In this document: piece after piece, positions 1-18,498 of the stretch | How positions within the stretch are numbered: position 1 is the first letter of the stretch | How the letters are laid out: each line of letters begins with the position of its first letter | Assembly: GCA_041746105.1 (NCBI GenBank) | Contig: JBGTHP010000039.1 | Coordinates: 34,201 to 98,200, forward strand | Origin: Acidimicrobiia bacterium | GTDB lineage: Bacteria; Actinomycetota; Acidimicrobiia; Spongiisociales; ZC4RG35 | Direction of reading: 5' to 3' | Length of the DNA stretch: 64,000 nt | The notes under the pieces: generated by a model | Database searches by the model: none | What the model was told of the DNA's origin: nothing | The model's input: the letters and a program-made list of their open reading frames with translations, nothing else | Position numbers and translations under genes: made by a program

Positions 1-1799
1 AGTCGTGACACCGTGTGCTTCTCCATGTACTCGGACATGTCGAGCTGTATCAACGCGTCCTCGTCGCCAAAGAGGAAAGCGGTCAACGCCTTGGCGGTCT
101 CGGTCTTGCCGACACCGGATGGTCCAAGAAAAATGAACGAGCCTGAGGGGCGCTTCGGATCCTTGAGTCCGGCCCTGGTCCGACGAATCGCCTTCGAGAC
201 GGCCACGATGGCGTCGTGCTGGCCGATTATCCGCTCGTGCAGTTCCTCCTCCATCTTGACCAGGCGGGCGGTCTCTTCCTCGGTTAGGCGATGAACCGGG
301 ATACCGGTCCATTGCGCGAGAACCTGGGCGATCTCTTCCTCGTCTATGACCCAAGTCGAGTCCCCACCTTCTTCGATGAGCCTTCTCTCGACAAGTGAGC
401 GGTCAGCTGTCAGGGTCTTTTCTTTGTCCCGCAGCTGGGCGGCCCGCTCGAACTGCTGGGCCTGGACCGCGTCCTGCTTCTGCTGTCGGACGTCGGTCAG
501 TTGCCGATCGATCTCGACAAACTCGGGATTGTTGCCGGAGCGGCTGATCCGCATGCGGCTGCCTGCCTCATCGATGAGGTCGATCGCCTTGTCGGGCAGG
601 AAACGGTCAGACAGGTAGCGGTCGGCGAGATTGGCGGCAGAAACGATGGCCTGTTCCGTGAAACGGACAGAGTGATGCGACTCGTAGCGGTCCTTGAGTC
701 CCAACAAGATCTGAATGGTGTCTGCAATGGACGGTTCCTCGACCTTGACCGGCTGAAAACGCCTCTCGAGGGCAGAGTCCTTTTCGAGATACTTGCGGTA
801 CTCCTCGAGTGTCGTCGCCCCGATCGTCTGCAGCTCGCCGCGAGCCAGCATCGGCTTGAGGATCGAAGCGGCGTCGATCGCACCCTCGGCGGCGCCGGCA
901 CCGACCAAGGTGTGAATCTCATCGATGAAGATGATGACGTCGCCGCGAGTTTTGATCTCCTTCAAGACCTTCTTCAATCGCTCCTCGAAGTCGCCTCGGT
1001 AGCGCGAACCTGCCACGAGGGCACCGAGATCGAGGGTGTAAAGCTTCTTGTTGGTGAGCGTCTCGGGAACATCGCCTGCGACGATGCGCTGGGCAAGACC
1101 TTCTGCGATGGCAGTCTTGCCGACACCGGGCTCGCCGATCAGCACAGGGTTGTTCTTGGTGCGCCGAGAAAGAACCTGCATGACTCGTTCTATCTCACGG
1201 GTGCGGCCGATCACAGGATCGAGCTTGCGCTCACGCGCCGCCTGCGTCAGGTTGCGTCCGAACTGATCGAGGACGGTCGAGCCCTGCCCGCCTGAAGACG
1301 AAGACTCCCTGCCGGAGGATGACGAGGAGGACGAGGACTGCGGGTCGTCGCTCGAGCCACTGCTGGGACTCGAAAGAAGCTGGATGACCGTTTGTCGTAC
1401 TTTTTGCAGCTCCGCGCCCAACTTTTGGAGAACCTGCGCGGCGACACCTTCCCCCTCACGAATGAGGCCGAGAAGGATGTGTTCTGTCCCGATGTAGTTA
1501 TGCCCAAGTTGGAGTGCTTCTCGCAGCGACAGTTCGAGGACCTTCTTCGCCCTGGGGGTGAAAGGAATGTGGCCCGTCGGAGCGGTCTGGCCTTGACCGA
1601 TGATCTCGACGACCTGCTCACGCACTCCGCTGAGACTTATCCCGAGACTCTCGAGCGCCTTGGCGGCCAAACCTTCGCCCTCGTTGAGGAGACCGAGGAG
1701 TATGTGCTCGGTTCCGATGTAGTTGTGGTTGAGAAGTCGGGCTTCTTCTTGGGCGAGCACTACGACTCGTCGGGCCCGATCGGTGAACCGTTCAAACAA
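1..1799 (-). CDS. clpC: ATP-dependent Clp protease ATP-binding subunit ClpC, N-terminal ~600 aa. The C-terminus runs off the left edge. Probable TTG start at 1799 giving [21 protein letters not shown].
   Basis: The reverse complement of 1741-1800 translates to [19 protein letters not shown] (ClpC N-domain). The reverse complement of ~900-945 gives [15 protein letters not shown] (Walker B). The + strand ORFs 13..294 and 501..1295 are antisense images of Walker A/B. No stop lies inside the window, so the gene is absent from the ORF track. Confidence 0.85.
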
Positions 1800-1963
1800 G
1801 GCCAACGCCTCCTCGTGGGAAAAACTCGCTCGGTAAGAACTATACCGAACCGTGGGTTCAACCATTCGAACCCCCTCACCTTCCTCACATCGGCACAGGA
1901 ACGGGCTCGCTGAAGTGGTTGGATCGAGTTCGCGCATTCCCTTCCTGCGGGTAGCCTTGGATC

Positions 1964-2953
1964 ATGGCCGATCTGGCGGAACTGGTACCCATCCCCCGAG
2001 TGTGGGAACGAATGGAGCGCGTCGAACAGCGCCTGTTCGAGGCGACCACGTCAGGCGACGAACGGCTGACCGAGATCTCACAACATCTTCTCAACGCGGG
2101 CGGAAAGAGATACCGGCCGGTGCTTGCCCTCCTCGCCGCCGAGCTGGGCCCGAGTCCGGAACACCACCCGGTCGAAGCGGCAGTAGCGGTGGAACTGATC
2201 CATGTCGGGAGCCTCTATCACGACGACGTGATCGACGAGGCGGACACCCGTCGCGGTGCGGCCAGCGCCAACATCAACTGGACCAACACGGTCGCGATCC
2301 TGGCCGGTGACTTCCTCATGGCTCGCGCCTCGGAGACGGCGGCAACCCACCTCAGCCAAGAATCGGTCAGGCTTCTGGCAGCAACCTATGCCGAGTTGGT
2401 CGAAGGCCAGACCCGCGAACTCGGACTCGACTACGACCTCGACCACTCGGTGGGCGCCTACGAACACGTCATCTATCAAAAAACCGCCAGCCTGATTCGG
2501 ACCTCCGCCCGGCTGGGGGCGATTGCGGCCGGGGCTTCCGATCCAACGGTCGAAGCCGTGAGTACCTGGGCGGCAGAGGTGGGGATGGTGTTCCAACTCG
2601 CCGACGATGTCCTCGACCTCATCGCAACCTCGGACGTGCTCGGGAAACCCGCTGGATCGGACATCAGGGAAGGCAAATTCACCCTGCCCGTCCTGCTGGC
2701 GCTGGCAGGCCCGGAAAGCGAACGCGTGAGAAAGCTCCTCAAAGAGCCCATCCCCTACCGCGACGCCGCGGTCGATGAGGTCATCGAGATCGTACGCGGC
2801 GGCGGGTATTCGGGTGGCGCCTTGGCCGCCGCCCGTCAGCGGCTCGAAGTGGCTCGAAGCGCGATCGCCGGATTGGGAACACCCGAGGTGAGAGCCGTTT
2901 TTGAGCGAGTTGGATCGTATCTGGTTGACCGAGTCGAAGCGCTCGAATCCTGA
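1964..2953 (+). CDS. trans-polyprenyl diphosphate synthase (GGPP/heptaprenyl-type, IdsA family)
   Basis: 329 aa. First aspartate-rich motif is LYHDDVIDEADTRRG and second is FQLADDVLD. KRYRP and GKPAGSDIREGKFTLP are conserved. Confidence 0.85.
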   Translation: MADLAELVPIPRVWERMERVEQRLFEATTSGDERLTEISQHLLNAGGKRYRPVLALLAAELGPSPEHHPVEAAVAVELIHVGSLYHDDVIDEADTRRGAASANINWTNTVAILAGDFLMARASETAATHLSQESVRLLAATYAELVEGQTRELGLDYDLDHSVGAYEHVIYQKTASLIRTSARLGAIAAGASDPTVEAVSTWAAEVGMVFQLADDVLDLIATSDVLGKPAGSDIREGKFTLPVLLALAGPESERVRKLLKEPIPYRDAAVDEVIEIVRGGGYSGGALAAARQRLEVARSAIAGLGTPEVRAVFERVGSYLVDRVEALES

Positions 2954-2996
2954 GAAACAACTCCAGTCAGAGGGTTGAGGGGCCGAAACCCTCAGC

Positions 2997-4439
2997 ATGG
3001 ACCTTCAGTCCTTCTTCAGAGATGCAGTAGCCGCACAAATCAAGGAACTCGAGGTCGCGATCGACCTTCCTCCCGATGCTCCCGAGGTTGCCAACGCCCG
3101 GCGCGTAGCGCATTCGCTCAAAGGTTCCGGCACCACGTATGGATACCCGGAGATATCGCAGGCGGCCGCCGTCACCGAACAAGCCTCAGATGCCAGTTTC
3201 AGCAAGTCGGTGGAGTCGCTGATCGAGGTGTTGACCAAAGCGATCGAAACGGACTCCAAGGTGGCGGTGCTCGTGGTCGACGACGATCCGGTTTTCGGCG
3301 AGATGCTGGTGGCCAAGTTGTCGAGTCCCCTCCTCAGGGTTGAACACGTCGGCTCGCGGGCCGAGGCCGAATCCCATCTGGACAATTCCCAGCCACAGGT
3401 GATCGTGCTGGACCTCTTCCTTCCCGACGGAGATGGCCGCGATCTCCTCGCCCAACTGGTCCAATCCCGTCCCGGTCTCACTGTCATCGCCACCAGTGCC
3501 ACGGACTCGAACGAGCTCCGGGATGCGGTCATGGCCGCCGGCGCCACTGCGTTTCTCACCAAACCGGTGAACATCAGGGCCCTCACCGATCTCGTCGAAC
3601 AGCTTCTCCGCCAGCGGGCAGAGGGACGCCACACCCGCGACCCGCTCATCGAGGTCTATGACGACCTTCGACGGACCGCTCCGACCGTGACCGTCGCATC
3701 AATCGTCCCCGAATTGCACGGGCCGGGCGGGCTCGATCGGCGCAACGACTCCAGTGTTCTCGACGACATGGTCAACGCCCTCGACGAACTGTTGCCGCCC
3801 GACATCGCAATCGGAAGGTGGTCGCCCACCGAACTGATCGGATTCACCGATGGAACGTCCCAAGAACTCCTCGAGACTCTCGATCGGGCTCGGCTCCGGC
3901 TGAGGAACCGGCTACAGCAGCCGGACGGTTCCGTCGCAACCTTCTCCGCCGGGGTTGCGCCCGGCAGCTCGAGCCTGCTCGATTCGTACGGACACGCCCG
4001 GGAGGCCGCCAGTGCGGCCGCGGCCGGCGGCGGCGACAGAGTTGTTCTCGCCAGCTCCACGGGCAGGGCCAACACCGTCCTCCTCGCGGAAGACGATCCA
4101 CTGACCGCGGCACTGGTGGTCCACCGTCTCGAGCGAGAAAGCCTCGACGTCACACACTGCACCGATGGCCTCACCGCCATCGAAATCGCATCCCAGCGAG
4201 AGTTCGGACTGATCATTCTCGACATCCAAATGCCGGGTCTCGACGGTTTCGGGGTGCTGGCGGAGCTCAGACAACGACCGGCCTATTTGGAGACTCCCAT
4301 CATCATCCTGACGGCGGTCGGCAGCGAACGTGATGTCGTGCGCGGTTTCGAACTCGGGTGTGACGACTATGTGCTCAAGCCTTTCAGCCCGGCCGAACTG
4401 ACGGCCAGGCTCAGGCGATTCACCAGGAAGGCCGTATGA
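2997..4439 (+). CDS. hybrid signalling protein: HPt - REC - degenerate GGDEF - REC
   Basis: 480 aa. N-terminal HPt motif AHSLKGSGTTYG. REC1 has VLVVDDDP...VLDLFLPDGDG...TKP. The middle domain aligns to GGDEF but carries RWSPTELIGF where RYGGEEF is expected, and keeps the C-terminal VATFSAGVA...GGGDRVV signature. REC2 has VLLAEDDP...ILDIQMPGLDG...KPF. Confidence 0.7.
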   Translation: MDLQSFFRDAVAAQIKELEVAIDLPPDAPEVANARRVAHSLKGSGTTYGYPEISQAAAVTEQASDASFSKSVESLIEVLTKAIETDSKVAVLVVDDDPVFGEMLVAKLSSPLLRVEHVGSRAEAESHLDNSQPQVIVLDLFLPDGDGRDLLAQLVQSRPGLTVIATSATDSNELRDAVMAAGATAFLTKPVNIRALTDLVEQLLRQRAEGRHTRDPLIEVYDDLRRTAPTVTVASIVPELHGPGGLDRRNDSSVLDDMVNALDELLPPDIAIGRWSPTELIGFTDGTSQELLETLDRARLRLRNRLQQPDGSVATFSAGVAPGSSSLLDSYGHAREAASAAAAGGGDRVVLASSTGRANTVLLAEDDPLTAALVVHRLERESLDVTHCTDGLTAIEIASQREFGLIILDIQMPGLDGFGVLAELRQRPAYLETPIIILTAVGSERDVVRGFELGCDDYVLKPFSPAELTARLRRFTRKAV

Positions 4440-4813
4440 AGTTCCTCTTCTGCGACGACGACCCCGTGATTCGGTACCTCCTCGAAATCCTTCTGGCAAA
4501 GCGGGGAGGCCACGAGGTAGTCCCGGTAGCCGACCCGTTCAAAGTTGTCGCCAATGCGATCGCCAGCGAACCCGACATGATCCTCCTCGATTACGTGATG
4601 CCTGGCATGACAGGACTGCAGGTCGTAGAGAGCCTGAGGGCGCACGATGAGACATCCAACACACCGGTTGTGTTTCTCACCGGCCGCTCCGACATCGCCG
4701 ATGGGCCGTCGCTCGATGCTTTGGGAGTCATGGGCGTCATCGAAAAACCCTTTGACACCGCCACCTTCATCGACCGCCTGATCGCCATGGCCGGTCGCGC
4801 CGCCACTCGCTGA
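4436..4813 (+). CDS. single-domain response regulator (CheY-like receiver)
   Basis: 125 aa. FLFCDDDP, LLDYVMPGMTG and EKPF motifs. Start overlaps the upstream stop (ATGA). Confidence 0.8.
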   Translation: MKFLFCDDDPVIRYLLEILLAKRGGHEVVPVADPFKVVANAIASEPDMILLDYVMPGMTGLQVVESLRAHDETSNTPVVFLTGRSDIADGPSLDALGVMGVIEKPFDTATFIDRLIAMAGRAATR

Positions 4814-4872
4814 TCTCCTTCATCCGAAGCGGATTACGCCGACAGGGTTGGTGACCACCAACTGGAGCACAT

Positions 4873-5520
4873 GTGGCAGGGTCCGCCCTGGTTGAAGCCA
4901 AGACGAGTCGCAACGGGAGCTACCATGCCGGTTCTGCGCGTGCGAGCTCGCTCAGTCGCCACGACTATCGGACTCCGTCGAAATTCACGGCGGCATTCGT
5001 CAGGGAATTCGACGACTTCCACAAAGAATTCATGGCAGTGCTGTCACAGCGCTACACCCGCGAACTCAAATCGCAGATAACTATCGAGCACCTCAGCACC
5101 GAGCAGCTCACGTATGACGCCTACGTCCGCTCCATGCCCAATCCAAGCCTTCTCAACATCTTCGAGTTGGCCCCGCTTCCAGGTCGCGTCGTCTTCGAGA
5201 TGAGCCCCCAACTCGGGTTGGTTCTGGTCGATCGCCTCTTGGGTGGCCGCCCTGGCCGACCGGTCTCGCCGCGACCGCCGACCGTTCTCGAACAGACTCT
5301 GCTGACCACTCTCACCACCCACCCGATGGCAGCTTTCCAGGCCGCCCTCAGCCTGTTGGTCGACGTCGACCCACAGTTGGTACACACCGAGTTGAATCCT
5401 CAGTTCGCCCACGCCGCCATTGGCGGCCCTGGCACGTTTTCCGGGAGCCGTGTCATCTGTCTCCTCAACGCCCTCGTATTGGGTGCCGAAGAAGCCACGC
5501 ATCGCCATGAGCGCCTCTGA
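4873..5520 (+). CDS. fliM: flagellar motor switch protein FliM, N-terminal and middle (CheC-like) domains only. The C-terminal FliN/SpoA domain is missing.
   Basis: YDAYVRSMPNPSLLNIFELAPLPGRVVFEMSPQLGLVLVDRLLGG aligns with the E. coli FliM segment YHEFARNLPVPTNLNLIHLKPLRGTGLVVFSPSLVFIAVDNLFGG. The ORF stops at 5520 where a complete FliM would carry ~90 more residues. The 3' end overlaps the fliA region 4 on the opposite strand. Confidence 0.65.
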   Translation: MAGSALVEAKTSRNGSYHAGSARASSLSRHDYRTPSKFTAAFVREFDDFHKEFMAVLSQRYTRELKSQITIEHLSTEQLTYDAYVRSMPNPSLLNIFELAPLPGRVVFEMSPQLGLVLVDRLLGGRPGRPVSPRPPTVLEQTLLTTLTTHPMAAFQAALSLLVDVDPQLVHTELNPQFAHAAIGGPGTFSGSRVICLLNALVLGAEEATHRHERL

Positions 5521-6184
5521 ACGGATCTGGGAGACCCTGGCCTCGGTGAGTCCGAGATCGCCCGCAATGTCTTGAAGGAGTTCCCCTTCGAGGTAGTACC
5601 GAGAGATGACTTCGGCCTGGACCGCCGGCAGATTGCGAATCGCCTCTACCAATGTGCCTCGCATCTCGCGCTGCTCAAGGGCGAACTCCGCAAGAAAATC
5701 CGCACGCTGCTCTTCGACCCGGTCGACGAGAGGGGAATCCTCGCCCTCGCTCTGCTGGTCCAGATGAAGCAGGGTCGAAGTAGTTGCCTGAGCCTGACGC
5801 CTGCTCAGTTCGGCGATGCTGATTCCGAGGAAAGATGCAAAGTTCTTCTGCAACCGGGGTCTTGCCATGCTGCTCTTCCAGACCGGACTGGGCCTGCTGG
5901 ATGTCACGAATATTGCGCCGGACCGAACGGCTCGCCCAATCTCGGGTCCTCGTGCTGTCGATGATGGCGCCGCGAATACGAATTGCGGCGTGCCGTGCAA
6001 AAGGGATGCCGGACTCCGGATCAAAGCGACGGCTGGCCTCGACCAAGCCGAGAGCGCCTGCGTTCCACAACTCGGCTCGGTCCACGTGACGTGGATAACG
6101 GGCCGAGACCTCGGCGACAATGTGGCCGACGAGATCCATGTTGTCGGTCACAAGCTGATTCTGTTGGTGGCTTGTGAGGCTCAT
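5461..6184 (-). pseudogene. fliA: flagellar sigma factor FliA/WhiG (sigma-28 class). A 1-nt indel at ~5838-5840 splits regions 2 and 3-4, and there is no in-frame stop after region 4.
   Basis: Frame A (ORF 5675..6184) carries region 2, LVGHIVAEVSARYP...ELWNAGALGLVEASRRFDPESGIPFARHAAIRIRGAIIDSTRTRDW. The frame of ORF 5044..6120 carries regions 3-4, LGISIAELS...LPAVQAEVISRYYLEGELLQDIAGDLGLTEARVSQIRSEALMAMRG. The join occurs at GAAGAACTT-T-GCATC, where one extra T in a T3 run breaks EEL/ASFLGI. The region-4 frame then stays open to 5044, fully antisense to fliM. Confidence 0.7.
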
Positions 6185-6389
6185 GTTTCCCTACTCCTAC
6201 GATGCGGTTTCGATTCGCTGTGGTAATCGGGAAACCGGCGATCAATCCTTGAGGACCATTTAGAAATAGTCATTGGGTTGTCGGGGGAAACGCTTAACCA
6301 CCCTTTCGACGGGCCGACCACGCCGGCCGCGGTGCACGATCTACCAATTCACGACTTGACCGAAGCCGATTGGGGCGGACAGGAGAATC

Positions 6390-6833
6390 GTGACCATCAC
6401 ACACAATGCTCTCGCCGCACCCACGATCGACAAGCTGGTGGCTTTGCTCAACGGCGAAAGAAAAGTCCTCGAGCAACTGCTTTTCAGGATCACCGAATTC
6501 GAGTTGTTGCTGGCCGGCGCAGAACACCGGTTTGTCGCGAAGTCGCTCGACGAAATCGACCACGCCGAGAACGATCTCGCCATGTATGAGTTGAGCAGGG
6601 CGATTGTGGTCGAGACGCTGTTGCCACCCAACGTCCCACCAACGGCTACATCCCTCTTGGACATCTGTGCCGATCACCCCCAGTTGATCCGGGCGCTCGA
6701 TGACCTCAAAAGACTCGTTGCCGCCATCGAGCACGGACGCGAGCGGTGTCGCCGGCTCTCGCAGGAAAGAGTGGAAAAAGTCGGCACGGCCGAGCGCCGC
6801 CTCCAGCATCAGGGATTCGGCCCCTACGGCTGA
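6390..6833 (+). CDS. FlgN-like flagellar export chaperone family protein, paralog of the gene at 11193..11705
   Basis: 147 aa with GTG start and an AGGAGA Shine-Dalgarno. Shares the [12 protein letters not shown] motif (compare ERRLLEQLLFKL in the second copy). Helical and acidic. Divergently placed from fliA. Confidence 0.4.
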
Positions 6834-7072
6834 TTGGCGTCACGACGTCTGAGGACCATCCCTCTGATCGCCTCCGCCCCGTCCACCGCATCTACCACCG
6901 CGGCCTGGTTTTCAGCAGTCACCTGTCGATAAATCTCGGCGCGATGAACCGCCAGAGAACGCGGTGCATCGATCCCAATTCGGATCTGACCACCACGAAC
7001 CTCGAGCACCGTGACCACGACGTCGTTACCGATGACGATGGCCTCGCCGACCTTCCGTGTCAATACGAGCAT
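6824..7072 (-). CDS. csrA: carbon storage regulator / translational repressor CsrA
   Basis: [54 protein letters not shown] start at 7070-7072, internal to the longer ORF 6824..7279. Confidence 0.9.
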
Positions 7073-7161
7073 CCGGCAACGATACATGGAGGACAGGGCC
7101 CCCCGGCGGATAACGTTGGACCGATCAAACCGGCAACGGTTACGCGAGAGTTGGCGAACAG

Positions 7162-8301
7162 CTACATATCGGTTTCGGTGACAGTGGATGCGACTCGGGG
7201 GTCGATGCCGAAAATGTGGACGAGGTCGGCCGGTTCTCGGATCGGGCCCGTTGGAAGATGTCGCGAGTCCCAGGCGCATGCCGCCGCAATCAGCTGCGCC
7301 TCAGGAGTGCTGGCCCGGCCCATGTAGCCGGATTCGCGCAGTAGCGGACTGTCGGCGATGCCGCGTTGCCTCGGCAGAGTGGCCACCATCCTGACGAGTT
7401 CATCGTTGTGATTCACTCCGCTGCACCGGAACTCGGTACCGCCGAAAGTGAGCGAATGCAACCACGACGCGGCCTCAAGGCGCGACCGGTCCTTTTCCGG
7501 GAGGTGAATCGAGTGTTGACGCACGATCTCCACCATCCGTTCGGTGTGACCGGGGTTTCGCCCATCTCGCTCGGCCGAGATGATCCTGGCCTGCGCTTCG
7601 AGTTGGAGGGCGGCCCCGTGTTCCCGAAACCACGACCTGATCGCTTCTGTGTAGAGCGCTGCTGCCGCTATCGCTGGCAGGAGAGCCCACGAGGTGGTTG
7701 CGGGCACTGCCCATGCGAATGCAACCGCACCAGCGGATACGCCGATATCGCGGACCTGAGCCTTCCAGTAGTCGGCGCCTCCGGGCCAACGGTCATAGAG
7801 CAACCTCACGGAGATGGCGGCGAGCGGATAGTTGACCAGGACGCCGATCGCAGTCACTGCGGCCGCTCCCATCAGAACCAGCACCAGGTTTTTTGCGACC
7901 ACATCGACGGTCGGGGCGGCAGATATCAGTGCACCAACCACCAGCCATCGCGTCGACAGAATCCCATCGTTGAGAGCACAGAGCCTCCAGCCCTGCCGCC
8001 TGACCGCGGCCCACGCGATCAGTTTGGCCTGTATGACCAGCACGATCGGCGCCAACGGTCCGGCGACGAAACCGGTCGCCATCATGATCGGCGTGGAAGG
8101 GTCCAAAACAAATCGGTTCGGCTCCCTGACCATCAACAGCGACGACCCGACAGCCACCAACGTCAATCCGATGATTGCAAAAAACGTCGCAGGAGAAGGG
8201 ACCACAACCGAGATCGATCCGCCAATACCAGCGGCGACACCGCTGAATAACACGCCCAAAAGCGCGAACACAACGGGCCGCCGCTCAGTCGATGCGGTCA
8301 T
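7162..8301 (-). CDS. polytopic membrane protein (~7 TM) with a C-terminal degenerate HD/HD-GYP-like domain (7TMR-HD-like)
   Basis: 379 aa. Hydrophobic N-terminal ~270 aa. The C-terminal segment [35 protein letters not shown] resembles H-x-ERV...AALLHDIGK of HD domains but has HS instead of HD. Lies between fliW and csrA. Confidence 0.5.
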
Positions 8302-8464
8302 ATGACCGATTCATCGGCATTTTCGTCCCGGATACTTGAGTCGGGCGATCGTTCATCCGACGCGGGTGTTGCGCACGATGACTCCCTTCTCACGATCGTC
8401 TGCCGCCCAGGACATCCCGCCTTGGGGTCATCAGACTGTAAGACGCATCGGCGTGCACGCGCGG

Positions 8465-8488
8465 GAAATCCGATTGCCGGATTTCGCA
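8465..8488. repeat. perfect 8-bp inverted repeat GAAATCCG-ATTGC-CGGATTTC in the fliW / 7TM-HD intergenic region
   Basis: Read directly from the sequence. Followed by the palindromic CGGCCGGCC and GGCCTGgtctcAGGCC. Confidence 0.3.
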
Positions 8489-8517
8489 CTCACGGCCGGC
8501 CTGGTCTCAGGCCGACG

Positions 8518-8934
8518 TCAACCGACGGGAATCTCTGCTCTGAGAGGGTATTCCTGGTTCGTGAGAACGATCTGGCGGCCCTTGCGAGTATGGGCGTTGA
8601 CTATGAACGGACCGAGCAAGTTCATGAAAGGGGTTGCGCCCTCAAACGAGATCGAACAGAACACCAAAGCATCTTCTGCGGCGGTGAGCTCCAGGCCCGC
8701 TTGTTCCAGGTCGGACAATTCCGGGGCGTAGTCCGGAAAAAACAGCCAGGGCACTGCAACGACCATGGCCACGTCGGGGTCGTCCATATCATGGAAGATC
8801 TGAAACTCGCCGGTCTCCACCAGATCGGTGAGTGCAAAATTGCGTGCATCAGGAAAGCCGGGAACGCCTTCGTCAAAAATCAGCACATCGCTCATTGGAG
8901 CGGCCAGGCTAGCGTCCGCTTCTGCTTCGATCAT
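8518..8934 (-). CDS. fliW: flagellar assembly factor FliW (CsrA antagonist)
   Basis: MIEAEAD...MSDVLIFDEGVPGFPDARNFAL...QIFHDMDDPDVAMVVAVPWLFFPDYAPELSDLEQAGLELTAAEDALVFCSISF...LTNQEYPLRAEI match FliW. The ATG at 8932-8934 overlaps the flgL stop. Confidence 0.85.
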   Translation of the reverse strand: MIEAEADASLAAPMSDVLIFDEGVPGFPDARNFALTDLVETGEFQIFHDMDDPDVAMVVAVPWLFFPDYAPELSDLEQAGLELTAAEDALVFCSISFEGATPFMNLLGPFIVNAHTRKGRQIVLTNQEYPLRAEIPVG

Positions 8935-9822
8935 CGCAGGAACTGGGCGAGGGAAGGCTGAAGTGATCGGGCGAGGGCCCCCTGCCCCGCCTGGTCGGCG
9001 GTTTCCTGCATCTGGAGTTCCATGATCGCCGCCGCGAGATCGGTGTCTTCTGTCTCTGACAACACAGTCCGCAGATTCACATCGTCGGCCTGGGCTCTGA
9101 ACAACGCCTGTTCGATGCGATTGAAGTGGCGCCAAGCTTGGCGCGCCCTACGAGCAGACGGTCGAGTCCGGTATGGAGATCTGCGATGGACTGGCCCAAA
9201 CCGGCCGAATCCTGGCTCTGGACCTGGGTCAGAACCGTCTCGAGAAGAGTGAACAGGTCCTGGCCGGCGTTGAACCCAAAAACCTCGCCTGCGGTGACGT
9301 TGACCTGGACCTTCTCGTTTTCGCCGATTCGCCCGGTCACCGCACCCGCGTCGCCTTGATAGGTCCAGGTACCGGCAACTTTCGCCACCGCATCACCAGA
9401 ACTGAAGCCTCCGAACAGTGGCCGGCCGCCGGTCTTGGCGTTTGCCATCGACGTGATGGAACTGAGGCGTTCCCCGACCTCGGCTGCGATGGCGATGGCG
9501 CCGTCGGGTCCACTTGTGCCGTTGCGCGCAGAGATCACCAACTCGCGTACTCGCTGGATTGCGTCACCGATGCTTCCGAGACGGGCGTCGGCGAGTTCGG
9601 CCCATTGGCGTCCGTCATCCGCGTTCTTTTTTGCCTGGGCATTGGCGGCGAGAGCGGTACGATCCGGAGCGAGCGGCTCATGCCTGCCGGGTCATCTGAG
9701 GCGACTCTGATCCTTTTGCCGGTAGTCAGATCGGTTTGGGCGCGCTCGAAGTCGTTCAGCCGATCGTTCATCCGGCGCACACCGAGATCGGTCATCATTC
9801 GATTGGTGATTCGGTTGGTCAT
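8931..9822 (-). pseudogene. flgL: flagellar hook-associated protein 3 FlgL, disrupted by two frameshifts at ~9657-9664 and ~9118-9126
   Basis: The N-terminus MTNRITNRMMTDLGVRRMNDRLNDFERAQTDLTTGKRIRVASDDPAG (ORF 9535..9822) shifts by -1 into the frame holding TALAANAQAKKNADDGRQWAELADARLGSIGDAIQRVRELVISARNGTSGPDGAIAIAAEV...RPLFGG (ORF 9077..9541). After ...VGRAKLGATS a second shift is needed to reach the conserved C-terminus NRIEQALFRAQADDVNLRTVLSETEDTDLAAAIMELQMQETADQAGQGALARSLQPSLAQFLR, which ends at the stop at 8931. Confidence 0.75.
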
Positions 9823-9827
9823 TCAGA

Positions 9828-11193
9828 TCACCTTCCCACTATCCCTGTGCGATTGATCAGGACATCCAGCATCTGGTCGACGGTTGTTATCACGCGGCCC
9901 GCAGACTCGTACATCCGCTGGTATTCCATGAGCGAGACCATCTCTTCGTCGACCGATACCCCATGGACCGACATGCGTGACCTTTCAGCGGCCTCGGCCA
10001 GACCCTGATGGGTGGCCGATGCCATGAGCAACGACGAAACGTCGCGCCCGAGGCCGGTGACGATCGATGAGAAGAAGTCGGGAAGCGACGTTGTCCCACC
10101 GGAGGCCGAAAGGCTGTTCCTGAGGTCCGCGAGTTGGGCTGCGATTCCGCCGTCAAAGTCGGGAAATGGTGGCCCCGCAGACGTGGCGGCAGCCAATTGC
10201 GCCGGATCGGTGATGGCGACGGTCATCGTCTTCGCCGGCGAGCCAGGATTGAAGGAGAACAATGGACCCCCCGGTCCGCCGGTGTGGTAGCCGCCGGCAT
10301 GGATGCCGTTCATGGCGTTGGCGAGATCCACCACGAAGGAATCCAACTTGGAGGTGAGATTGGGGAGATCGGTTGTGAAAGACTGCTGCAGTCCGCGTAG
10401 TTCGCCGCCCGGTGTCACGGCGATGCCGGATGGATGCAGGATCTGACCGGTGGACGGATCAGCGGTCAACGCCCGAGAACTCGAGCCTGAAACCAACGAG
10501 ATTCCGCCCAACAAGACCTGGACTCCGCCGAACTCGTCTCGGATCGTTCGAACTCCGATGATCGACGAAAGACGGTCCACCAACATGTCGCGCTGATCCA
10601 TCAGGTCGTTAGGTGTGCCGCGGGCGGCGCCGCTCTCGAGAATGGCACCGTTCAGATTGGCGACCTCCGCCAAGAGCTTGTTGACGTCGTCGACCTTGCC
10701 CAGGATCGAACTCTTGACCTCGGTCCGCAACGCGTCGAGTTCGCCGGCAACCTGTTGAATTCGGGAAGCCACGGCGTTGAGTTGACCGATTACACCCATC
10801 CGGGTGGCGCTGTCGTTTGGTGACAAGCTCAGTTCCTCGAACGAATTCGAAGAGTCGGTTGACTTCGACCAGGATTCCCCGGTCGGGTTCACCGAGGGCG
10901 GCCTCGGCCCTCGTGAGGAAGTTCGCCCTGATTCCGGTCTCTGATGCCCCCGAAATCGAAGCTCTCACCCTGGAATCGAGAAACTGGTCCCTCGAGCGAG
11001 AAATGCCAACAACATCGACGCCGGTGCCCACCTGACCAGAAGGCGTACTCCGGGGCATGCGGGCTCGAAGATCGACTCGCTGCCTGGTGTATCCATCGGT
11101 CGATGCGTTCGAGATGTTGTGCGAAGTTGTATCGAGCCCACGTTGCGCGGCCCGCAGACCGCTCAAAGCCACGTGTAGTGCTGTGAAATCCAT
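9828..11193 (-). pseudogene. flgK: flagellar hook-associated protein 1 FlgK, disrupted by a frameshift in the CCCC run at 10877-10880
   Basis: N-terminal frame (ORF 10609..11193) is MDFTALHVALSGLRAAQRGLDTTSHNISNASTDGYTRQRVD...EAALGEPDRG. C-terminal frame (ORF 9828..10892) is ESWSKSTDSSNSFEEL...EMVSLMEYQRMYESAGRVITTVDQMLDVLINRTG. The frames join only if one G is restored in CGGGG-GAATCC. Confidence 0.75.
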
Positions 11194-11705
11194 CAGAACA
11201 CCTCATCGATCTTGGTCGGACCTGAATAGACACTCTCGTGCCGGGTGCCGCGAGCGTCATAGACCTCGATCGGGTGCTGGCCGAGAAGCACGCCGAGAGA
11301 CTCTGCGACGTTTCCGAGGGCCAAAGACGCCAGCCTGCGGTTGTCAAGGGTCGCGTGTTCGATCTCGGTGGTTAGGCGCTGGAACTGGTCACGGTGGTCT
11401 TCGAACATGGTTCGGTACGGCTCCGGCGCCCACGACGACAAAAACCCGAGGGTGACCTTGGCCGGAGGCTGACCGATGGCGTCGGCGAGAGCATTGGCTG
11501 CAGAGCCGCGGTGAGCCTCGCCTGCACGAATCCTGGCGATGGCCGAGTCGACCTCACTCATGGCCTGGGGGACAAAACGTGCCTCGTCGGCTGCCAGCAC
11601 GAGACGCGCCGCGACCAACTTGAACAGGAGCTGTTCGAGTAGACGTCGCTCGGCCGAAAGGGTGTCGGCCAGCTCAACCAACTGGCGCCGATTCGGAATG
11701 CTCAT
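11193..11705 (-). CDS. flgN: FlgN-like flagellar chaperone, placed upstream of flgK as in flgN-flgK-flgL operons
   Basis: MSIPNRRQLVELADTLSAERRLLEQLLFKLVAARLVLAADEARF. Position and shared motif with 6390..6833. The ORF extends to 11816, but the ATG at 11705 is preferred. Confidence 0.5.
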   Translation of the reverse strand: MSIPNRRQLVELADTLSAERRLLEQLLFKLVAARLVLAADEARFVPQAMSEVDSAIARIRAGEAHRGSAANALADAIGQPPAKVTLGFLSSWAPEPYRTMFEDHRDQFQRLTTEIEHATLDNRRLASLALGNVAESLGVLLGQHPIEVYDARGTRHESVYSGPTKIDEVF

Positions 11706-11796
11706 AGCAATGCCTGTCGACCACCCGCGCCGGGGCAAAAGGTGTCGTTTTCGAAGGGCGGTCAGGGCACCGTTGTCCACTACCGTGCTGTCCACA

Positions 11797-12351
11797 ATGG
11801 ACATGGACGAGCTCAAGCAGAAACTCGAAGAAGCCGAGACCTCGCTGGCTCAACTCCGGCTCGTCATGGACGGGGTCGGCACCGTCGACCTGTCTACCGG
11901 AATCAACAATCGCAACGGGGTGCTGGAAGCAATCGAGCGCGGGCGCCGGTGGATGAATCGACGCGGTGACATGTTCGGCGTCATCGTGGTCCGCTTCATG
12001 AACATGCCGGTCATCGATCTCGACATCCCCGACCATGTTGAGTTGGTCAAACACCTTGCCGCCACAATTGGCGCAGGCGTCAGGGAAGTCGACGACGTGG
12101 GCCGGCTCGACGACATGTCGTTCGCGATTGTGCTGGCCGACGTCAAACCCGGGGCAATCAGCGTGGTGGTGGATCGTGTCATGGCACAGATCGAAGCCTC
12201 CGGCGAAACCCTTGAGCGCGCCGGCGGGGTGTTCCGGCTGGCAGCAATCGAGTTGCTCAGCAGCAGCCACTCCTCTGATGTGATCCTCGATGCCACCGAG
12301 CGCCTGCTGGCCAAGTCCGCCGACAACGGTTGGGCCGGCGCCCAGCTCTGA
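11797..12351 (+). CDS. degenerate GGDEF-domain protein (DDMSF replaces GGDEF) with a short N-terminal coiled coil
   Basis: TGINNRNGVLEAIERG...GVIVVRFMNMPVIDLDIPDHVELVKHLAATIGAGVREVDDVGRLDDMSFAIVLADV...ERAGGVFRLAAIELLSSSHSSDVILDATERLLAKSADNGWAG aligns along a full GGDEF fold. The active-site GG(D/E)EF reads DDMSF. Confidence 0.6.
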   Translation: MDMDELKQKLEEAETSLAQLRLVMDGVGTVDLSTGINNRNGVLEAIERGRRWMNRRGDMFGVIVVRFMNMPVIDLDIPDHVELVKHLAATIGAGVREVDDVGRLDDMSFAIVLADVKPGAISVVVDRVMAQIEASGETLERAGGVFRLAAIELLSSSHSSDVILDATERLLAKSADNGWAGAQL

Positions 12352-12429
12352 GCCGCCGACACCAGTCGGCCGGTGCCGACGGTTCGCGAAAAGCATTTAT
12401 TACGCACCAGACGAGCCGACAGGTTCGAA

Positions 12430-12690
12430 ATGATCCGGCTGCACCGCATTCGCGGCGAAGAGATGTTTCTCAATGCCGACCTCATCGAATCGATGGAGGT
12501 CACTCCCGACACCGTGCTCACGCTCATCGATGGGCGGAAAATGGTGATCGCCGATGACCCCAATGTCGTTGTCGATGAGATCGCGCGGTTCAGGGCTCGA
12601 GTTTTGTGCGCCGCAGATGAGATGCGCAGCGGCGGCGGGACGGCCGCCGAAGTGGTGCGTTTGGTCCGGTCGGAACCCGAGTCGGACTAG
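12430..12690 (+). CDS. flbD: flagellar protein FlbD
   Basis: MIRLHRIRGEEMFLNADLIESMEVTPDTVLTLIDGRKMVIADDPNVVVDEI matches the FlbD consensus MIKLTRLNGSEFYLNPDLIEFIEATPDTVITL.NGKK. Start taken at the internal ATG at 12430. Confidence 0.7.
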   Translation: MIRLHRIRGEEMFLNADLIESMEVTPDTVLTLIDGRKMVIADDPNVVVDEIARFRARVLCAADEMRSGGGTAAEVVRLVRSEPESD

Positions 12691-14189
12691 GCCTCCGGAC
12701 GGAGCGTCGGAAACAGAATCACCTCGCGGATATGGGTCTGATCGGCCAGGAGCATCACGATGCGATCGACCCCGATCCCAAGCCCTCCTGTCGGAGGCAT
12801 CCCGTGCTCCAGGGCCAGGAGAAAATCCTCATCCACCGGGTGGGCATCGTGGTCGCCAACGGATTTCGAATGAGCCTGCGATTCGAAGCGTGCTCTCTGG
12901 TCCACTGGATCGTTCAACTCCGAGAATGCATTGGCGTATTCGGCTCCAGCGATGAACAGTTCGAACCGCTCCGTCAGCTCTGGATCGTCTCGGTGGCGTC
13001 GGGCGAGTGGAGAGATCTCGACCGGATGATCGATGACAAAAACGGGTTCCCAGAGTGTGTGTTCCACCAACTCGTCGAACAACGCCTCGATCAATTGACC
13101 GGTGGTCCACTCCGGCTTCCAGTCCACGCCAGTGCGGTCGGCAATCAACCTGAGGTTCTCGACCTGCGGCGCCGGCCACACCGATTCGCCAACCACGTCC
13201 TCCACCAGGTCGACCATGCGGGCCCGCCGGAATGGAGGGTTGAGATCGAGGACCTTTCCCCGGTATTCGATGACGGTCCGACCAATGACGGTCTCGGCCA
13301 GATCGGCCACCATCACCTCGAGCATTTCCATGATGTCGCCATAGTCGGCCAGGGTCTCGTAGGACTCGAGAGTTGTGAACTCCGGGTTGTGGGTGGCGTC
13401 GACGCCTTCATTGCGAAAGACGCGCCCGATCTCGAACACCCGATCGATACCTCCGACTATCAGCCTCTTCAGGTGCAACTCTGTGGCGATCCGCAGAAAC
13501 ATGGACTGGTCGAGCGCGTTGTGATGGGTGACAAAAGGTCTCGCCAGTGCGCCGCCGGCCTCGAGTTGGAGTATGGGTGTTTCTACCTCGACGTATCCGC
13601 GGTCCTCGAACAAAGCCCGCAGCCTCGATATCACTTTCGCCCGAACGAGCGCAACCCGCCGGGCCTCCGGATTCATCATCAAATCGAGATAGCGGCGCCG
13701 CGATCGAGCCTCGACGTCTTGAAGGCCATGCCATTTGTCGGGCAGCGGTTGCAGCGCCTTGGCAAGCAACTGAAAGGTCTGGACCTTGACCGAGAGTTCC
13801 CCTTTCTTGGTTGTGACGATCTCTCCGGTGGCACCCAACCAGTCACCGAGATCGAGATCTTCGAAACGTTCGAACTCTGCTTCTCCGATTTCGGCTTTCG
13901 AGCACATCAGCTGGATCCGACCGGATCCGTCGTCGACGGTCGCAAACACCAGTTTTCCAAAACTCCGGTGAAGCATCAGACGTCCGGCGACGGAAACGAT
14001 CTCACCGGTGGCGGCCCCCGGTCCCAAATCGGGGAAGCGGTCGTGCAACTCACCGGCACGGCCGTCCCGTGCAAAACGCGGTGGATACGGATCCACCCCG
14101 CTCGCCCGCAACCGCTCGAGCTTTGCCATCCGAGCCGCGACCAGTCGATGCTCGCCGGCTTCTTCCTGATCTGGGGGTTGGGGTTCCAT
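12687..14189 (-). CDS. lysS: lysine--tRNA ligase (class II)
   Basis: 500 aa. N-terminal OB-fold anticodon-binding domain and class II catalytic motifs. GLGIGVDRIVMLL near the C-terminus. Confidence 0.95.
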   Translation of the reverse strand: MEPQPPDQEEAGEHRLVAARMAKLERLRASGVDPYPPRFARDGRAGELHDRFPDLGPGAATGEIVSVAGRLMLHRSFGKLVFATVDDGSGRIQLMCSKAEIGEAEFERFEDLDLGDWLGATGEIVTTKKGELSVKVQTFQLLAKALQPLPDKWHGLQDVEARSRRRYLDLMMNPEARRVALVRAKVISRLRALFEDRGYVEVETPILQLEAGGALARPFVTHHNALDQSMFLRIATELHLKRLIVGGIDRVFEIGRVFRNEGVDATHNPEFTTLESYETLADYGDIMEMLEVMVADLAETVIGRTVIEYRGKVLDLNPPFRRARMVDLVEDVVGESVWPAPQVENLRLIADRTGVDWKPEWTTGQLIEALFDELVEHTLWEPVFVIDHPVEISPLARRHRDDPELTERFELFIAGAEYANAFSELNDPVDQRARFESQAHSKSVGDHDAHPVDEDFLLALEHGMPPTGGLGIGVDRIVMLLADQTHIREVILFPTLRPEA

Positions 14190-14223
14190 TGGGGGGCAAC
14201 TTTCGACGTTAGGGCCGGCAGGT

Positions 14224-14976
14224 TCAAATCGGATTGCGCTCGCCGATGATGCGGAGACCCTTGAGGGTCAGATCGTCGTCCACCAGGTCGATCCGCTCGC
14301 TCGCCGCAGCCACGGTCGCGGCGTGGCGCCCGGTTGCCACCACCGTGACGCCGGTCAGGTGCAACTCGGTCTCGATCCGCTGGACGATTCCGTCGACCAT
14401 CGCGGCCGCTCCGAGAACGATCCCGGATTGGATCGCTTCCACGGTCCCCCGGCCGACGGCGTGAGCCGGCAGAGTCAACTCAACGTGACGCAAGGCGGCC
14501 GCCGACCCGGCAAGAGCTGCCGCCGAGACCTCGAGTCCTGCCGCGATGACGCCTCCCTTGAACACTCCCTCGGCATCGACGACGTCGACGGTTGTGGCCG
14601 TGCGGAAGTCGACCACCAAAACCGGGCATCCATATAGGGCGGACGCCGCCACCGCCCCCACAACCCGGTCTGAACCGACGTCTCGCGGGTTGTCGACCGC
14701 GAGCGCTAGCCCGGTTTTGACGCCCGGTCCGACAGTTGTCACGGTTTCGACGATGTGTGTCAGAGCAAGGCGAAGATCATTCGTGACAGAAGGCACAACA
14801 CTCGACAAGATGGCTCGGCGTGGCACCGAATCGCCCAAGAGCCCCGCCAGCATCAACCCGTTCTCGTCTGCGGTCCTGGCCAGGGTCCCGAGCGACCACC
14901 TCGCGACGAGTTCGGCACCCTCGAATAACCCGAGACCGGTGTAGCGATTCTCAACGTCGAGCACGAGCAGGCTCAT
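14224..14976 (-). CDS. coaX: type III pantothenate kinase
   Basis: MSLLVLDVENRYTGLGLF N-terminus and Gly-rich acetate/sugar-kinase fold. Synteny with panC. Confidence 0.85.
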   Translation of the reverse strand: MSLLVLDVENRYTGLGLFEGAELVARWSLGTLARTADENGLMLAGLLGDSVPRRAILSSVVPSVTNDLRLALTHIVETVTTVGPGVKTGLALAVDNPRDVGSDRVVGAVAASALYGCPVLVVDFRTATTVDVVDAEGVFKGGVIAAGLEVSAAALAGSAAALRHVELTLPAHAVGRGTVEAIQSGIVLGAAAMVDGIVQRIETELHLTGVTVVATGRHAATVAAASERIDLVDDDLTLKGLRIIGERNPI

Positions 14977-15836
14977 GGGTTCGAACCGCCCAATGCAATC
15001 CCCACGTCGATCACAAGCGGATCGATCGAGTCGATGGCGATGTTGTCGATCAGGCGGACCCCGCCTATCTTGGCCGCGACGGCCAGAAACGCAGGCCGGT
15101 CGAGTCCTGTCATGAGCGAAGCCCGATCCTGACTTGCAAGCTCCGCGTACTCGACGTCGGGGATCTCGGTCCTTATGGCGGCGGTCAAGACGGTTGCAGA
15201 ACGCTCGCCTCCCTCTATCAGAGCAGCTGCTCGAAACAGCCCGGTCGAGATTCGGCGAGCATCGCTGCGGGCGGCGACGTCGAGGAACGTATTCCGACTC
15301 GAGAGCGCCACACCGTCGGCTTCCCGGATGGTCGAGCCGGCAATGACCTCGAGCGGAAAACTCAGATCACGGACAAGGGTCCTCACGACGGCGAGCTGTT
15401 GTGCGTCCTTCTTTCCGAACACGGCGGCGTCCGGTTGGATTCCCGCGAACAACTTTGCGACCACGGTGGCGACACCCTCGAAATGGCCAGGGCGGAACCG
15501 ACCCTCCATTTCGGCCGCAACGGGTCCGAGATCGAGCCTGGTGACGGGATCTTCCGAAAACATCTCATCGAGTTCCGGCGCGAACAGCACATCGACCCCG
15601 GCCCTTTCACAGATCTCCGCATCTGCGTCGAGATCGCGCGGATAACGCGAGAGATCAGCGCCGTCATTGAACTGAAGTGGATTGACGAACACGGAAGCTA
15701 CGACGGCACCACCCTGGGCGACGGCGGTCTCGAACAGAGAGACGTGGCCGGCATGGAGCGCTCCCATCGTCGGGACCAACACCCGCGGGCGCCCGAATTG
15801 GGATCTCGTCTCGGCGAAAGTCGTGGTGATCTTCAC
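14973..15836 (-). CDS. panC: pantoate--beta-alanine ligase
   Basis: VLVPTMGALHAGHVSL HIGH-type motif. 287 aa. Confidence 0.9.
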   Translation of the reverse strand: MKITTTFAETRSQFGRPRVLVPTMGALHAGHVSLFETAVAQGGAVVASVFVNPLQFNDGADLSRYPRDLDADAEICERAGVDVLFAPELDEMFSEDPVTRLDLGPVAAEMEGRFRPGHFEGVATVVAKLFAGIQPDAAVFGKKDAQQLAVVRTLVRDLSFPLEVIAGSTIREADGVALSSRNTFLDVAARSDARRISTGLFRAAALIEGGERSATVLTAAIRTEIPDVEYAELASQDRASLMTGLDRPAFLAVAAKIGGVRLIDNIAIDSIDPLVIDVGIALGGSNP

Positions 15837-16615
15837 GAGACGAGATCTCCTTTACCAAGCCGTGTGGCCAAAGCCGAAACCAGGAGCCGGTATTCGGTTC
15901 CCAGATCAGGGCTCACCGCCGCCGCCGCCTCGATCTGACCCTGCACTGTCTTGTGATCCCCTCTGGCCACCGGGCCGGTCAGCGACGGTTGCCACCCCCT
16001 GGAGTAGATGTTGGAGATGACCGCTTGAACCAGCGGCCTGGTGACAACAATCGACGAGCCCACCGACCTCAGAAGGTCATCTGCCACGGCCAGGGTCTCG
16101 GTCAGGAGATTCGCAGCTGCCGACGCCGCTGCGTGGTAGGCAGGTTTGTGGTGATCATCGAGCGGGAACGGGTGCAAACCGATCGTCGACGCGAAGTCGC
16201 TCAGCAGGGCAGAGGCGGATCCGGTCACGGCGGCAAATGAACCGGAAAGAGATTTGGCACCGATCTCGGCGTTTGGCAGCGTCTGAAGCGGGTGCAGAGA
16301 TCCAGTCGCTACACCAAGATCGAAGACGTCGTCCAATACGTCGACCGACGTGAAACCGGACAAGTGGGCCACGGCCGAGACGCCGGTAAGGCGGCCGGCC
16401 AATTCCTCTGCGGCCGAACGAATCTGGGAATCTCGCGCTGCGACCACCGCCAAATCGGCTTCAGGGAGGACACCCTCGTAGCGAAAGGGCTCGAGTGGCG
16501 CAGGGATCGGAACCCCAGGGCGGGCTACGAGACCCACGAGTTCGTGTCCTGCCGTCTTTGCAGCCAACGCGAGCGCCCCGCCCGCCCGGCCGATGCCGAG
16601 CACGATCAGGCGCAT
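15833..16615 (-). CDS. Rossmann-fold NAD(P)-binding protein (DUF2520-like / putative ketopantoate reductase-related)
   Basis: MRLIVLGIGRAGGALA dinucleotide-binding N-terminus. Conserved position upstream of panC in actinobacteria. Confidence 0.5.
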   Translation of the reverse strand: MRLIVLGIGRAGGALALAAKTAGHELVGLVARPGVPIPAPLEPFRYEGVLPEADLAVVAARDSQIRSAAEELAGRLTGVSAVAHLSGFTSVDVLDDVFDLGVATGSLHPLQTLPNAEIGAKSLSGSFAAVTGSASALLSDFASTIGLHPFPLDDHHKPAYHAAASAAANLLTETLAVADDLLRSVGSSIVVTRPLVQAVISNIYSRGWQPSLTGPVARGDHKTVQGQIEAAAAVSPDLGTEYRLLVSALATRLGKGDLVS

Positions 16616-16708
16616 TTTTTCTCAGCCATCGATCCCACCGGTTCTCGTCCACCTCGGGTACCAGACCAGTGGGCAGGCTAGCCGACGTCAACGGCGTGGC
16701 TTCCGGAT

Positions 16709-17038
16709 CTACCACACCTCCTCTGGCTCGGCGGTCACCTCTTCCCAGCGGGCGTCAAGGCTTTCCTTCATCTCCCGATATCCGTCACGTCGCTTCCAGA
16801 ACTTCGTTTTCCAAACCCGAAATCGACGCCGTTCGATCTCTGAACCTAGATCTGGGGCTTCGTGCGCCCGGTTCCGACGAACCTCGGGGAGAGAGATTTC
16901 GTCGGGATCTTCGACGGTTGTCAAGAGTTGGTGGGCGGCGTGGCGCACCTGGCGATGCTGCCTCTGCCGATCCTCACGCGAAGGTCGCTCGTCGTAACCT
17001 GGGATGGACTTGCGGTTCGTGCGGGAGCGTTTTGCCAT
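16709..17038 (-). CDS. conserved hypothetical basic protein
   Basis: 109 aa ORF beginning MAKRSRTNRKSIPGYDERPSRE. No recognisable motif. Confidence 0.3.
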   Translation of the reverse strand: MAKRSRTNRKSIPGYDERPSREDRQRQHRQVRHAAHQLLTTVEDPDEISLPEVRRNRAHEAPDLGSEIERRRFRVWKTKFWKRRDGYREMKESLDARWEEVTAEPEEVW

Positions 17039-17188
17039 GTAAGCCTCCTACTGACAGGCGAGAAACAGTGATCTGATTTCTTCCGTCTTGTGGAGGAGCC
17101 CGCTCCTGCATCTACCAAAGAACATAGTCGCAATGGCGCGCCAAGCCATTGGTTTGTCCAGAAAATACCTTGCGGACGGTTCGATGTT

Positions 17189-18142: not shown

Positions 18143-18498
18143 CGCCGGCGGTGTATTGAGACCGATACGTCCCCGAAGGCGACCGGAATGGGTGCTGATG
18201 GTTTGTGCACGGTCACTTCGACTGCCTCGATCCGGCGATCGGCCAAAACCAGGTCGGCGACACGACCGGCAACTCGTTCGATCAACGACCATTGCTCGCC
18301 GGCCACGAGATCGTGAATCGATTGCGCCAGGGCTCCATAGTCGACGGTGTCGGTGAGCGTATCGGAAGCGCCGGCCTTGGACAGGTCCAGGGCGACCTCG
18401 ACATCCACCAGGAACAGCTGCCCTGCGGTTCGCTCTTCCGGGAGCACTCCGTGACGAGCAAAAACCTCGATTCGCTCGATCCTGATCCGATCGGTCAC
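18139..18498 (-). CDS. folB: dihydroneopterin aldolase
   Basis: MTDRIRIERIEVFARHGVLPEERTAGQLFLVDVEV. 119 aa. Confidence 0.9.
   Translation of the reverse strand: MTDRIRIERIEVFARHGVLPEERTAGQLFLVDVEVALDLSKAGASDTLTDTVDYGALAQSIHDLVAGEQWSLIERVAGRVADLVLADRRIEAVEVTVHKPSAPIPVAFGDVSVSIHRRR

Follow-up and report, generated by a model that had tools for sequence, protein, structure and literature searches.

The fliA gene, which encodes the flagellar sigma factor (sigma-28), in a 64-kb stretch of DNA (hereafter the window) from an uncultured Acidimicrobiia bacterium is, with a probability of about 85%, a recently inactivated pseudogene with two independent lesions, in a flagellar gene cluster being lost from this lineage. 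The gene runs on the minus strand from position 6184 down to 5422, with one extra base inside it and a truncated 3′ end. Compared with the intact orthologues of relatives, the frame disruption and the truncation are reproduced in run-level assemblies and stand outside the general error background, and the lesions are restricted to flagellar genes. Judging from the sequence, neither a functional sigma-28 nor a FliM/FliN switch complex is predicted to be makeable from this locus.

Materials and Methods

The window has a GC content of 61% and is part of a metagenome-derived 122-kb contig (122,030 bp). Genes in the window were predicted with a codon-usage model in combination with Pfam checks. A GC3 frame plot with greedy longest-ORF gene picking was also tried, but it was unreliable at 61% GC and was replaced. 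For the run-level sequence comparison, the Logan assemblies of the runs SRR28170472 and SRR28170461 were used (contigs L006, L007, and L017). The source MAG was probably built from the reads of these very runs. L017 was located via a 379-aa ORF of the window; an exact look-up of a 354-aa flgK fragment gave no match. The closest relative is represented by run ERR14788467, in which contig L005 carries the fliA-HDOD genes and contig L008 carries the fliM-fliN genes. As reference proteins, I used P0001, an intact FliA orthologue of 289 aa, and P0122, the closest FliM orthologue, of 315 aa. The FliA orthologue set consists of the best 120 homologues (P0001 to P0120), which are from Acidimicrobiia and mostly 279–310 aa in length.

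Results

A Single-Base Insertion Splits fliA

The 5′ part of fliA (5842..6184 on the minus strand; codons 1 to 114/115) encodes sigma region 2 together with the beginning of region 3, and the Pfam domain Sigma70_r2 was found at its residues 12–83. In a tblastn search, residues 1–147 of the FliA of the closest relative (L005) were aligned with window positions 6184..5759. Inside sigma region 3, at 5839..5841, the minus strand carries one T too many in CTT-T, for which the plus strand reads AAA, and the sequence around the site is GTT GCA GAA GAA CTT T GCA TCT TTC CTC GGA ATC AGC. Translation in the upstream frame yields KTPVAEEL before running into junk (CIFPRNQ) and reaching a stop codon at 5675–5677, which makes an ORF of 169 aa (6184..5675). 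The other frame, an ORF of 358 aa (6120..5044), gives ASFLGISIAELSRRQ at the frameshift site. A comparison of three-frame translations revealed that the FliA orthologues are uninterrupted there, reading DLAKFLGIS or EIASFLGIS. Since the orthologues are unbroken where the two frames of the window split, the extra base in the T3 run is real. Such an insertion had been recognized in an earlier reading of this DNA made from the sequence alone (hereafter the sequence-only reading), although its position, 5838–5840, was off by one.

The 3′ part of fliA lies in the shifted frame (5422..5838, minus strand; codons ~116–254) and encodes the remainder of region 3 along with the region 4 HTH and the first ~25 residues of the clade-specific C-terminal tail. 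Residues 114–254 of the L005 FliA were aligned with 5844..5422 at 86% identity, and Pfam Sigma70_r4 was found in the 6120..5044 ORF. When one T was deleted in silico, the resulting protein was 88% identical to the intact 289-aa orthologues (P0001), and a Sigma70_r3 match spanning the site (residues 91–150), which is absent from either fragment, was restored. The sigma-domain profiles, which the sequence-only reading had named as a check, thus agree with a split gene, with r2 and r4 in separate ORFs and r3 detectable only after the removal of one T. Regions 2 and 4 are on separate ORFs in different frames, and there is no single uninterrupted polypeptide. The upstream frame offers region 2 followed by junk and the downstream frame is devoid of region 2, in line with the earlier view that a functional sigma-28 is unlikely.

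The repaired FliA has FliA_WhiG (TIGR02479) as its top NCBIfam family, with a score of 172.2 bits, below the curated cut-off of 189.6 bits. FliA_WhiG also ranks first for the intact orthologue P0001, with 170.6 bits. Thus, the score below the cut-off is a property of the clade and not an effect of the lesion. Among solved structures, the relatives of P0001 over residues ~8–235 are WhiG (6PFV/6PFJ, E-value of 6e-37) and FliA (6PMI, 5e-31; 1RP3, 1e-18), and the best of them is WhiG (6PFV), aligned over residues 8–230. Like members of the FliA/WhiG family, the repaired protein contains regions 2, 3, and 4 in this order, and the gene has flagellar neighbours. Unlike them, the window copy is frame-split and lacks the last 35 codons and the stop codon. 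Furthermore, in contrast to the solved sigma-28 and WhiG proteins, the clade carries a conserved C-terminal tail of ~55 aa (residues ~235–289) which is absent from all those structures. On these comparisons, the clade represents a divergent branch within FliA/WhiG whose members have an additional C-terminal tail. Since FlgM is absent from the classes lacking FlgFG, including this one (Zhu et al., mBio 2023, PMC10746217), the tail could be a candidate regulatory module.

The enterobacterial sigma-28 consensus TAAA-N15-GCCGATAA has 23 matches in the window when 3 mismatches are allowed (16.1 ± 3.6 expected) and no match with fewer than 3 mismatches, although the consensus of the host class may differ. 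One of the 23 matches (6294–6320) lies in a sigma-28-like element, TTAACC-N13-GCCGAC, upstream of a 147-aa gene. L005 has the element at the corresponding place before its 147-aa gene, and L001 has a partial, weaker match. The sequence-only reading argued from a lack of recognizable sigma-28 promoters upstream of flgN or flgK, and no enrichment of the enterobacterial consensus was observed. Because the element recurs in relatives, the absence of the E. coli motif is weak evidence either way. The 147-aa gene itself (6390–6833, plus strand) is divergent from fliA, keeps its position in relatives, and shows a weak similarity to FlgN below the Pfam cut-off. In the leader of fliA (intergenic region 6185–6389), there is a conserved CTCAAGGATTGA stretch resembling the CsrA-binding GGA motif.

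fliA and fliM Are Joined Tail to Tail

In the orthologues, the region 4 HTH is followed by the conserved ~55-aa tail, FFxTQYEGVE...APGKRARAAY-x-RM-x3-S-x-WR-x-RLDAE. The first part of this clade tail is present in the window at 5422–5495, and the orthologues extend 35 aa past the last matching fliA codon of the window, codon 254 of ~289 (5422). After RVSQIRSEALMAMRG, the fliA frame is open down to 5047, with a stop codon at 5044–5046, and it overlaps with the plus-strand fliM ORF (4873..5520). It was found that the ~25 codons past the HTH (FFGTQYEGVEETDDTAPGKRARAA) are genuine fliA and belong to the clade-conserved tail. The fliA tail of the window ends with APGKRARAA and is followed by NGGVGELRIQ, which is encoded by the reverse complement of fliM. 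In other words, where the orthologues continue as YMSRMEEKSDWRSRLDAE, the window reads NGGVGELRIQLGVYQLW. The read-through tail (5044..5421, minus strand), consisting of 125 codons and the stop codon, is antisense fliM and has no family match. Of the 45 genes of 200 codons or more that were predicted in the window, 40 have an antisense stretch of at least 126 codons without a stop. Thus, such a long open antisense tail is unremarkable.

The fliM gene is also a 5′ fragment. It comprises codons 1–182 of ~315 (4873..5418, plus strand), lacking the FliMN_C domain altogether and also the end of the middle domain. The fragment covers positions 2–152 of the 192 positions of the Pfam FliM profile (PF02154), while P0122 covers 1–189. 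For NCBIfam TIGR01397, the corresponding ranges are 31–186 of 320 for the fragment versus 28–317 of 320 for the intact P0122. No Pfam match to FliMN_C (SpoA, PF01052) was found in the fliM ORF. The identity to P0122 is 81% over residues 1–181, with none further on; the match continues through NPQFAHAA (codon 182), after which the frame reads IGGPGTFSGS, translated from antisense fliA. This read-through tail (5419..5520, plus strand) has 34 codons including the stop codon at 5518–5520, and the ORF as encoded (4873..5520) is 215 aa in length. The fragment lacks the FliN-binding domain, and fliN is gone from the window.

The two stumps meet tail to tail at GCCGCC-ATT-GGCGGC (5413..5427), in which ATT (5419–5421) matches neither gene. 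DNA and protein comparisons with the fliM of L008 and the fliA of L005 placed the last matching base at 5418 for fliM and at 5422 for fliA, and the blastn match of L005 ends exactly at 5422. In its context (CAC GCC GCC, ATT, GGC GGC CCT), the junction has an inverted GCCGCC/GGCGGC microhomology on both sides. A repeat search around the junction detected no IS ends and no long repeats, and a terminator/promoter scan detected no terminators.

These results change how the 3′ end of fliA should be read. The sequence-only reading pointed out that there is no stop codon past region 4 and that a tail of ~150 codons is antisense to fliM. The frame is indeed open, but the cause is the truncation at codon 254 and not a lost stop codon. 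The antisense relation applies to the last 125 codons, while the first ~25 are fliA proper. The intact gene it took as standard, a ~250-aa ORF with a stop codon near 5480, assumed an E. coli-like length, whereas more than 100 orthologues of this clade are 279–310 aa long. It also took fliM for a well-conserved, full-length rival gene, which is at odds with the cut after codon 182 of ~315. Since neither fliA nor fliM is full length, the puzzle of two full-length genes sharing the same DNA disappears.

Gene Order in Relatives and Missing Genes

Five related loci have flbD, a 189-aa gene, flgN, flgK, flgL, fliW, csrA, a divergent gene of 147–151 aa, fliA, and HDOD genes, and four other loci have clpC, polyprenyl synthase, Hpt-REC-REC, (CheY), fliM, and fliN. 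In the window, the arrangement is flgN-flgK-flgL-fliW-(379-aa ORF)-csrA-(147-aa gene)-fliA, in the same order as in L001–L005. In ERR14788467, one contig has polyprenyl synthase, Hpt-REC, CheY, FliM (315 aa), and FliN (283 aa), and another has CsrA, the 147-aa gene, FliA (289 aa), and HDOD. Positions 3 to 5418 of the window are collinear with the fliM-fliN block, and those from 5422 to beyond 19.8 kb with the fliA block. The L008 and L005 contigs of the relative do not overlap with each other, and the P0005 lineage has no fliM within 9 kb downstream of fliA.

Directly upstream of the fliM stump, the genes for an Hpt-REC-REC protein (480 aa) and a CheY-like protein (125 aa) are intact (2997–4813, plus strand), with 80–82% identity to the relative, while the switch complex on which they would be expected to act is gone. 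Between fliW and csrA lies the 379-aa ORF (7162–8301, minus strand), which is membrane-protein-like and belongs to no Pfam family. In more distant relatives, fliW and csrA are adjacent, while L005 has a homologue of this ORF with 55% identity. Thus, the ORF characterizes this lineage and does not represent a disruption.

It was assessed whether the missing 3′ parts are present elsewhere. By tblastn, no FliN, FliM residues 183–315, HDOD, or FliA residues 255–289 were found within the 64-kb window. A search of 5.8 billion proteins with the FliM C-terminus and the FliN of the relative recovered that relative and otherwise nothing above 51% identity, although this collection includes other ORFs of the window's organism. 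Among the GTDB representative contigs, which do not include the source MAG, the FliM of the relative had only two distant matches.

The tail-to-tail arrangement could also have been produced by an inversion with breakpoints in fliM and fliA, in which case the 3′ parts, with fliN and HDOD, would survive head to head elsewhere in the genome. The microhomology at the junction is consistent with this, as GCCGCC is in the sense strand of both genes, and its inverted orientation fits a template switch or recombination in inverted orientation better than direct-repeat slippage. However, no FliM C-terminus or FliN with ~80% identity was found in a database that holds the other proteins of this organism. 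Because the FliM C-terminus and FliN are missing from both the window (64 kb of the 122-kb contig) and the protein collection, a deletion is favoured, and the inversion appears improbable.

Frameshifts Are Restricted to Flagellar Genes and Reproduced in Run-Level Assemblies

Two more flagellar genes are broken. The flgK gene (9831..11196, minus strand) has one frameshift near 10846–10847, and tblastn gave two HSPs in different frames, covering residues 1–117 and 117–457. The flgL gene (8934..9813, minus strand) has two frameshifts, at ~9667–9700 and ~9122, and tblastn gave three HSPs in three frames; in L017, flgL is called as pieces of 95, 153, and 49 aa. The flgN, fliW, csrA, and flbD genes appear intact. 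In contrast to the flagellar genes, 23 non-flagellar genes with ~21.4 kb of coding sequence have no frameshift. Ten of these genes were checked by tblastn and 13 more as Pfam-checked ORFs, and all showed single full-length HSPs or essentially complete coverage of the Pfam profile. This intact set includes ClpC, LysRS, FtsH, folate genes, PanC, TilS, HPRT, and Tmk. All four frameshifts are within 5.9 kb of coding sequence in the flagellar cluster, for which P is ~0.002 under a uniform rate.

Elsewhere in the window, a Tad/Flp pilus gene set (54236–57662, minus strand) appears intact, with TadE/TadG-like pilins, DUF4244, and a CpaF-type T2SSE ATPase. These genes might provide another means of surface motility or of adhesion. 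At a distance of ~20 kb from the broken fliA, there is an intact gene for an ECF-type sigma factor (Sigma70_r2 and r4_2; 25843–26532, minus strand).

The Logan contigs agree with the window without exception. L006 (SRR28170472; 2,263 bp) corresponds to 4013–6275 and contains the junction and the fliA frameshift, L007 (SRR28170461; 1,303 bp) corresponds to 4331–5633 and contains the junction, and L017 (SRR28170472; 12,054 bp shown of 14,967) corresponds to 6248–18301 and contains the flgK and flgL frameshifts. All three are 100% identical to the window. Thus, both runs show the junction, and one run shows the four frameshifts (one each in fliA and flgK and two in flgL). Read validation had been proposed in the sequence-only reading, and at the level of assemblies this point has been largely settled, as the junction is identical in SRR28170472 and SRR28170461 and the fliA frameshift is found in SRR28170472. 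This agreement rules out assembler chimeras, but it does not address a systematic chemistry error or which allele is the minority and which the majority. JGI metagenome contigs had no matches for either allele of the frameshift site. L006 and L017, both from SRR28170472, end and begin at 6248–6275 with an overlap of 28 bp, which suggests a branch in the assembly graph (strain variation or a repeat) upstream of fliA.

It is very improbable, slightly more so than the inversion, that the true fliA and fliM are intact and that the window combines a homopolymer T error with a chimeric fliM/fliA join. The source is a metagenome-derived contig, the indel sits in a short homopolymer (T3), and the Logan contig boundary at 6248–6275 is just upstream of fliA. 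Against these points, the run-level assemblies match the window with no mismatches over 2.3, 1.3, and 12.1 kb, and the only sequence shared at the junction is an inverted 6-mer, which is far too short for a de Bruijn mis-join. Moreover, no intact allele of this species' fliA exists among the 5.8 billion proteins. The contrast between no frameshifts in 21.4 kb and four in 5.9 kb makes a background of indel errors or an assembler chimera very unlikely.

Age of the Decay

Relative to the closest relative, dN/dS is 0.043 for fliA and 0.058 for fliM, while intact neighbouring genes have values of 0.04–0.22. The values for fliA and fliM are not raised above those of their neighbours, so that these genes do not show the relaxed selection by which a pseudogene might be recognized. 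This suggests that most of the divergence occurred under constraint and that the lesions are young on that scale. Since dS is saturated (1.2–2.2), the dN/dS argument for recency is a soft one.

Discussion

The preferred reading, inactivation of fliA by two independent lesions, may be described as follows. A 1-nt insertion in region 3 parts sigma region 2 from regions 3–4. A rearrangement, most likely a deletion, would account for the loss of the last 35 codons and the stop codon of fliA, the HDOD genes, fliN, and the 3′ 40% of fliM. The stumps of fliA and fliM are joined tail to tail at 5419–5421, and each reads into the antisense strand of the other until a chance stop codon, giving the long open tail. 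Additional frameshifts are present in flgK and flgL. The events are probably recent.

The gene might still be functional if ribosomes were programmed to shift frame at CTTTG, if transcription slipped there, or if the sigma factor acted in two pieces, with the extension as a novel fusion domain, but this possibility can practically be dismissed. In its favour, both halves are very well conserved (as the dN/dS of 0.043 indicates) and the region 4 HTH itself is intact. However, the frameshift occurs in none of more than 100 orthologues, and each of those inspected has one unbroken ORF with other codons at this position. The site contains no X XXY YYZ heptamer, three T residues do not suffice for slippage, and the extension is antisense fliM with no family match. 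Recoding is not credible given that neither a slippery motif nor a conserved frameshift in orthologues exists, and, with flgK, flgL, fliM, and fliN also broken or missing, a sigma-28 would be left without a working regulon at this locus.

A more specific scenario can be drawn, though it is an unlikely guess in its entirety. A single rearrangement at the inverted GCCGCC microhomology, by template switch or end-joining, might have removed fliM/fliN together with the end of sigma-28 in a free-living population. The locus might then represent the first generations after the loss of motility, with Hpt-REC-REC and CheY kept for another output such as the Tad pilus, whose genes are at ~54–58 kb.

Decay of this kind has precedents. 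The non-motile Yersinia pestis, Shigella, Bordetella pertussis, and Burkholderia mallei have pseudogenes in the flagellar regulon, with several independent frameshifts or deletions and intact housekeeping neighbours. The present locus is similar to theirs in having multiple lesions in both regulator and structural genes beside intact neighbours. In contrast, those pathogens are host-restricted and their lesions are often IS-mediated, whereas the present case is an environmental uncultured actinobacterium with no IS at the junction.

In Actinobacteria, the flagellum has been lost repeatedly, and 41–91% of species are flagellated across the basal classes including Acidimicrobiia (PMC10746217). 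The window conforms to the pattern of vertical inheritance with lineage-specific loss described there, in that relatives keep intact flagellar genes while the window lineage shows loss and pseudogenes. That study scored presence, absence, and pseudogenes across genomes, whereas the window locus is one intermediate stage with breakpoints resolved to 3 nt. Thus, the locus is a case of ordinary gene loss, a further and breakpoint-resolved instance of the known actinobacterial flagellar loss.

The main use of these results lies in annotation, where both fliA and fliM need a pseudogene label. Neither the sigma-factor ORF of 358 aa nor the FliM ORF of 215 aa should be counted as a protein, and the two should not be counted as overlapping genes. 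The locus raises no new question; it is a cleanly resolved snapshot of lineage-specific loss, and non-motility is the prediction for this organism, although it carries flagellar genes.
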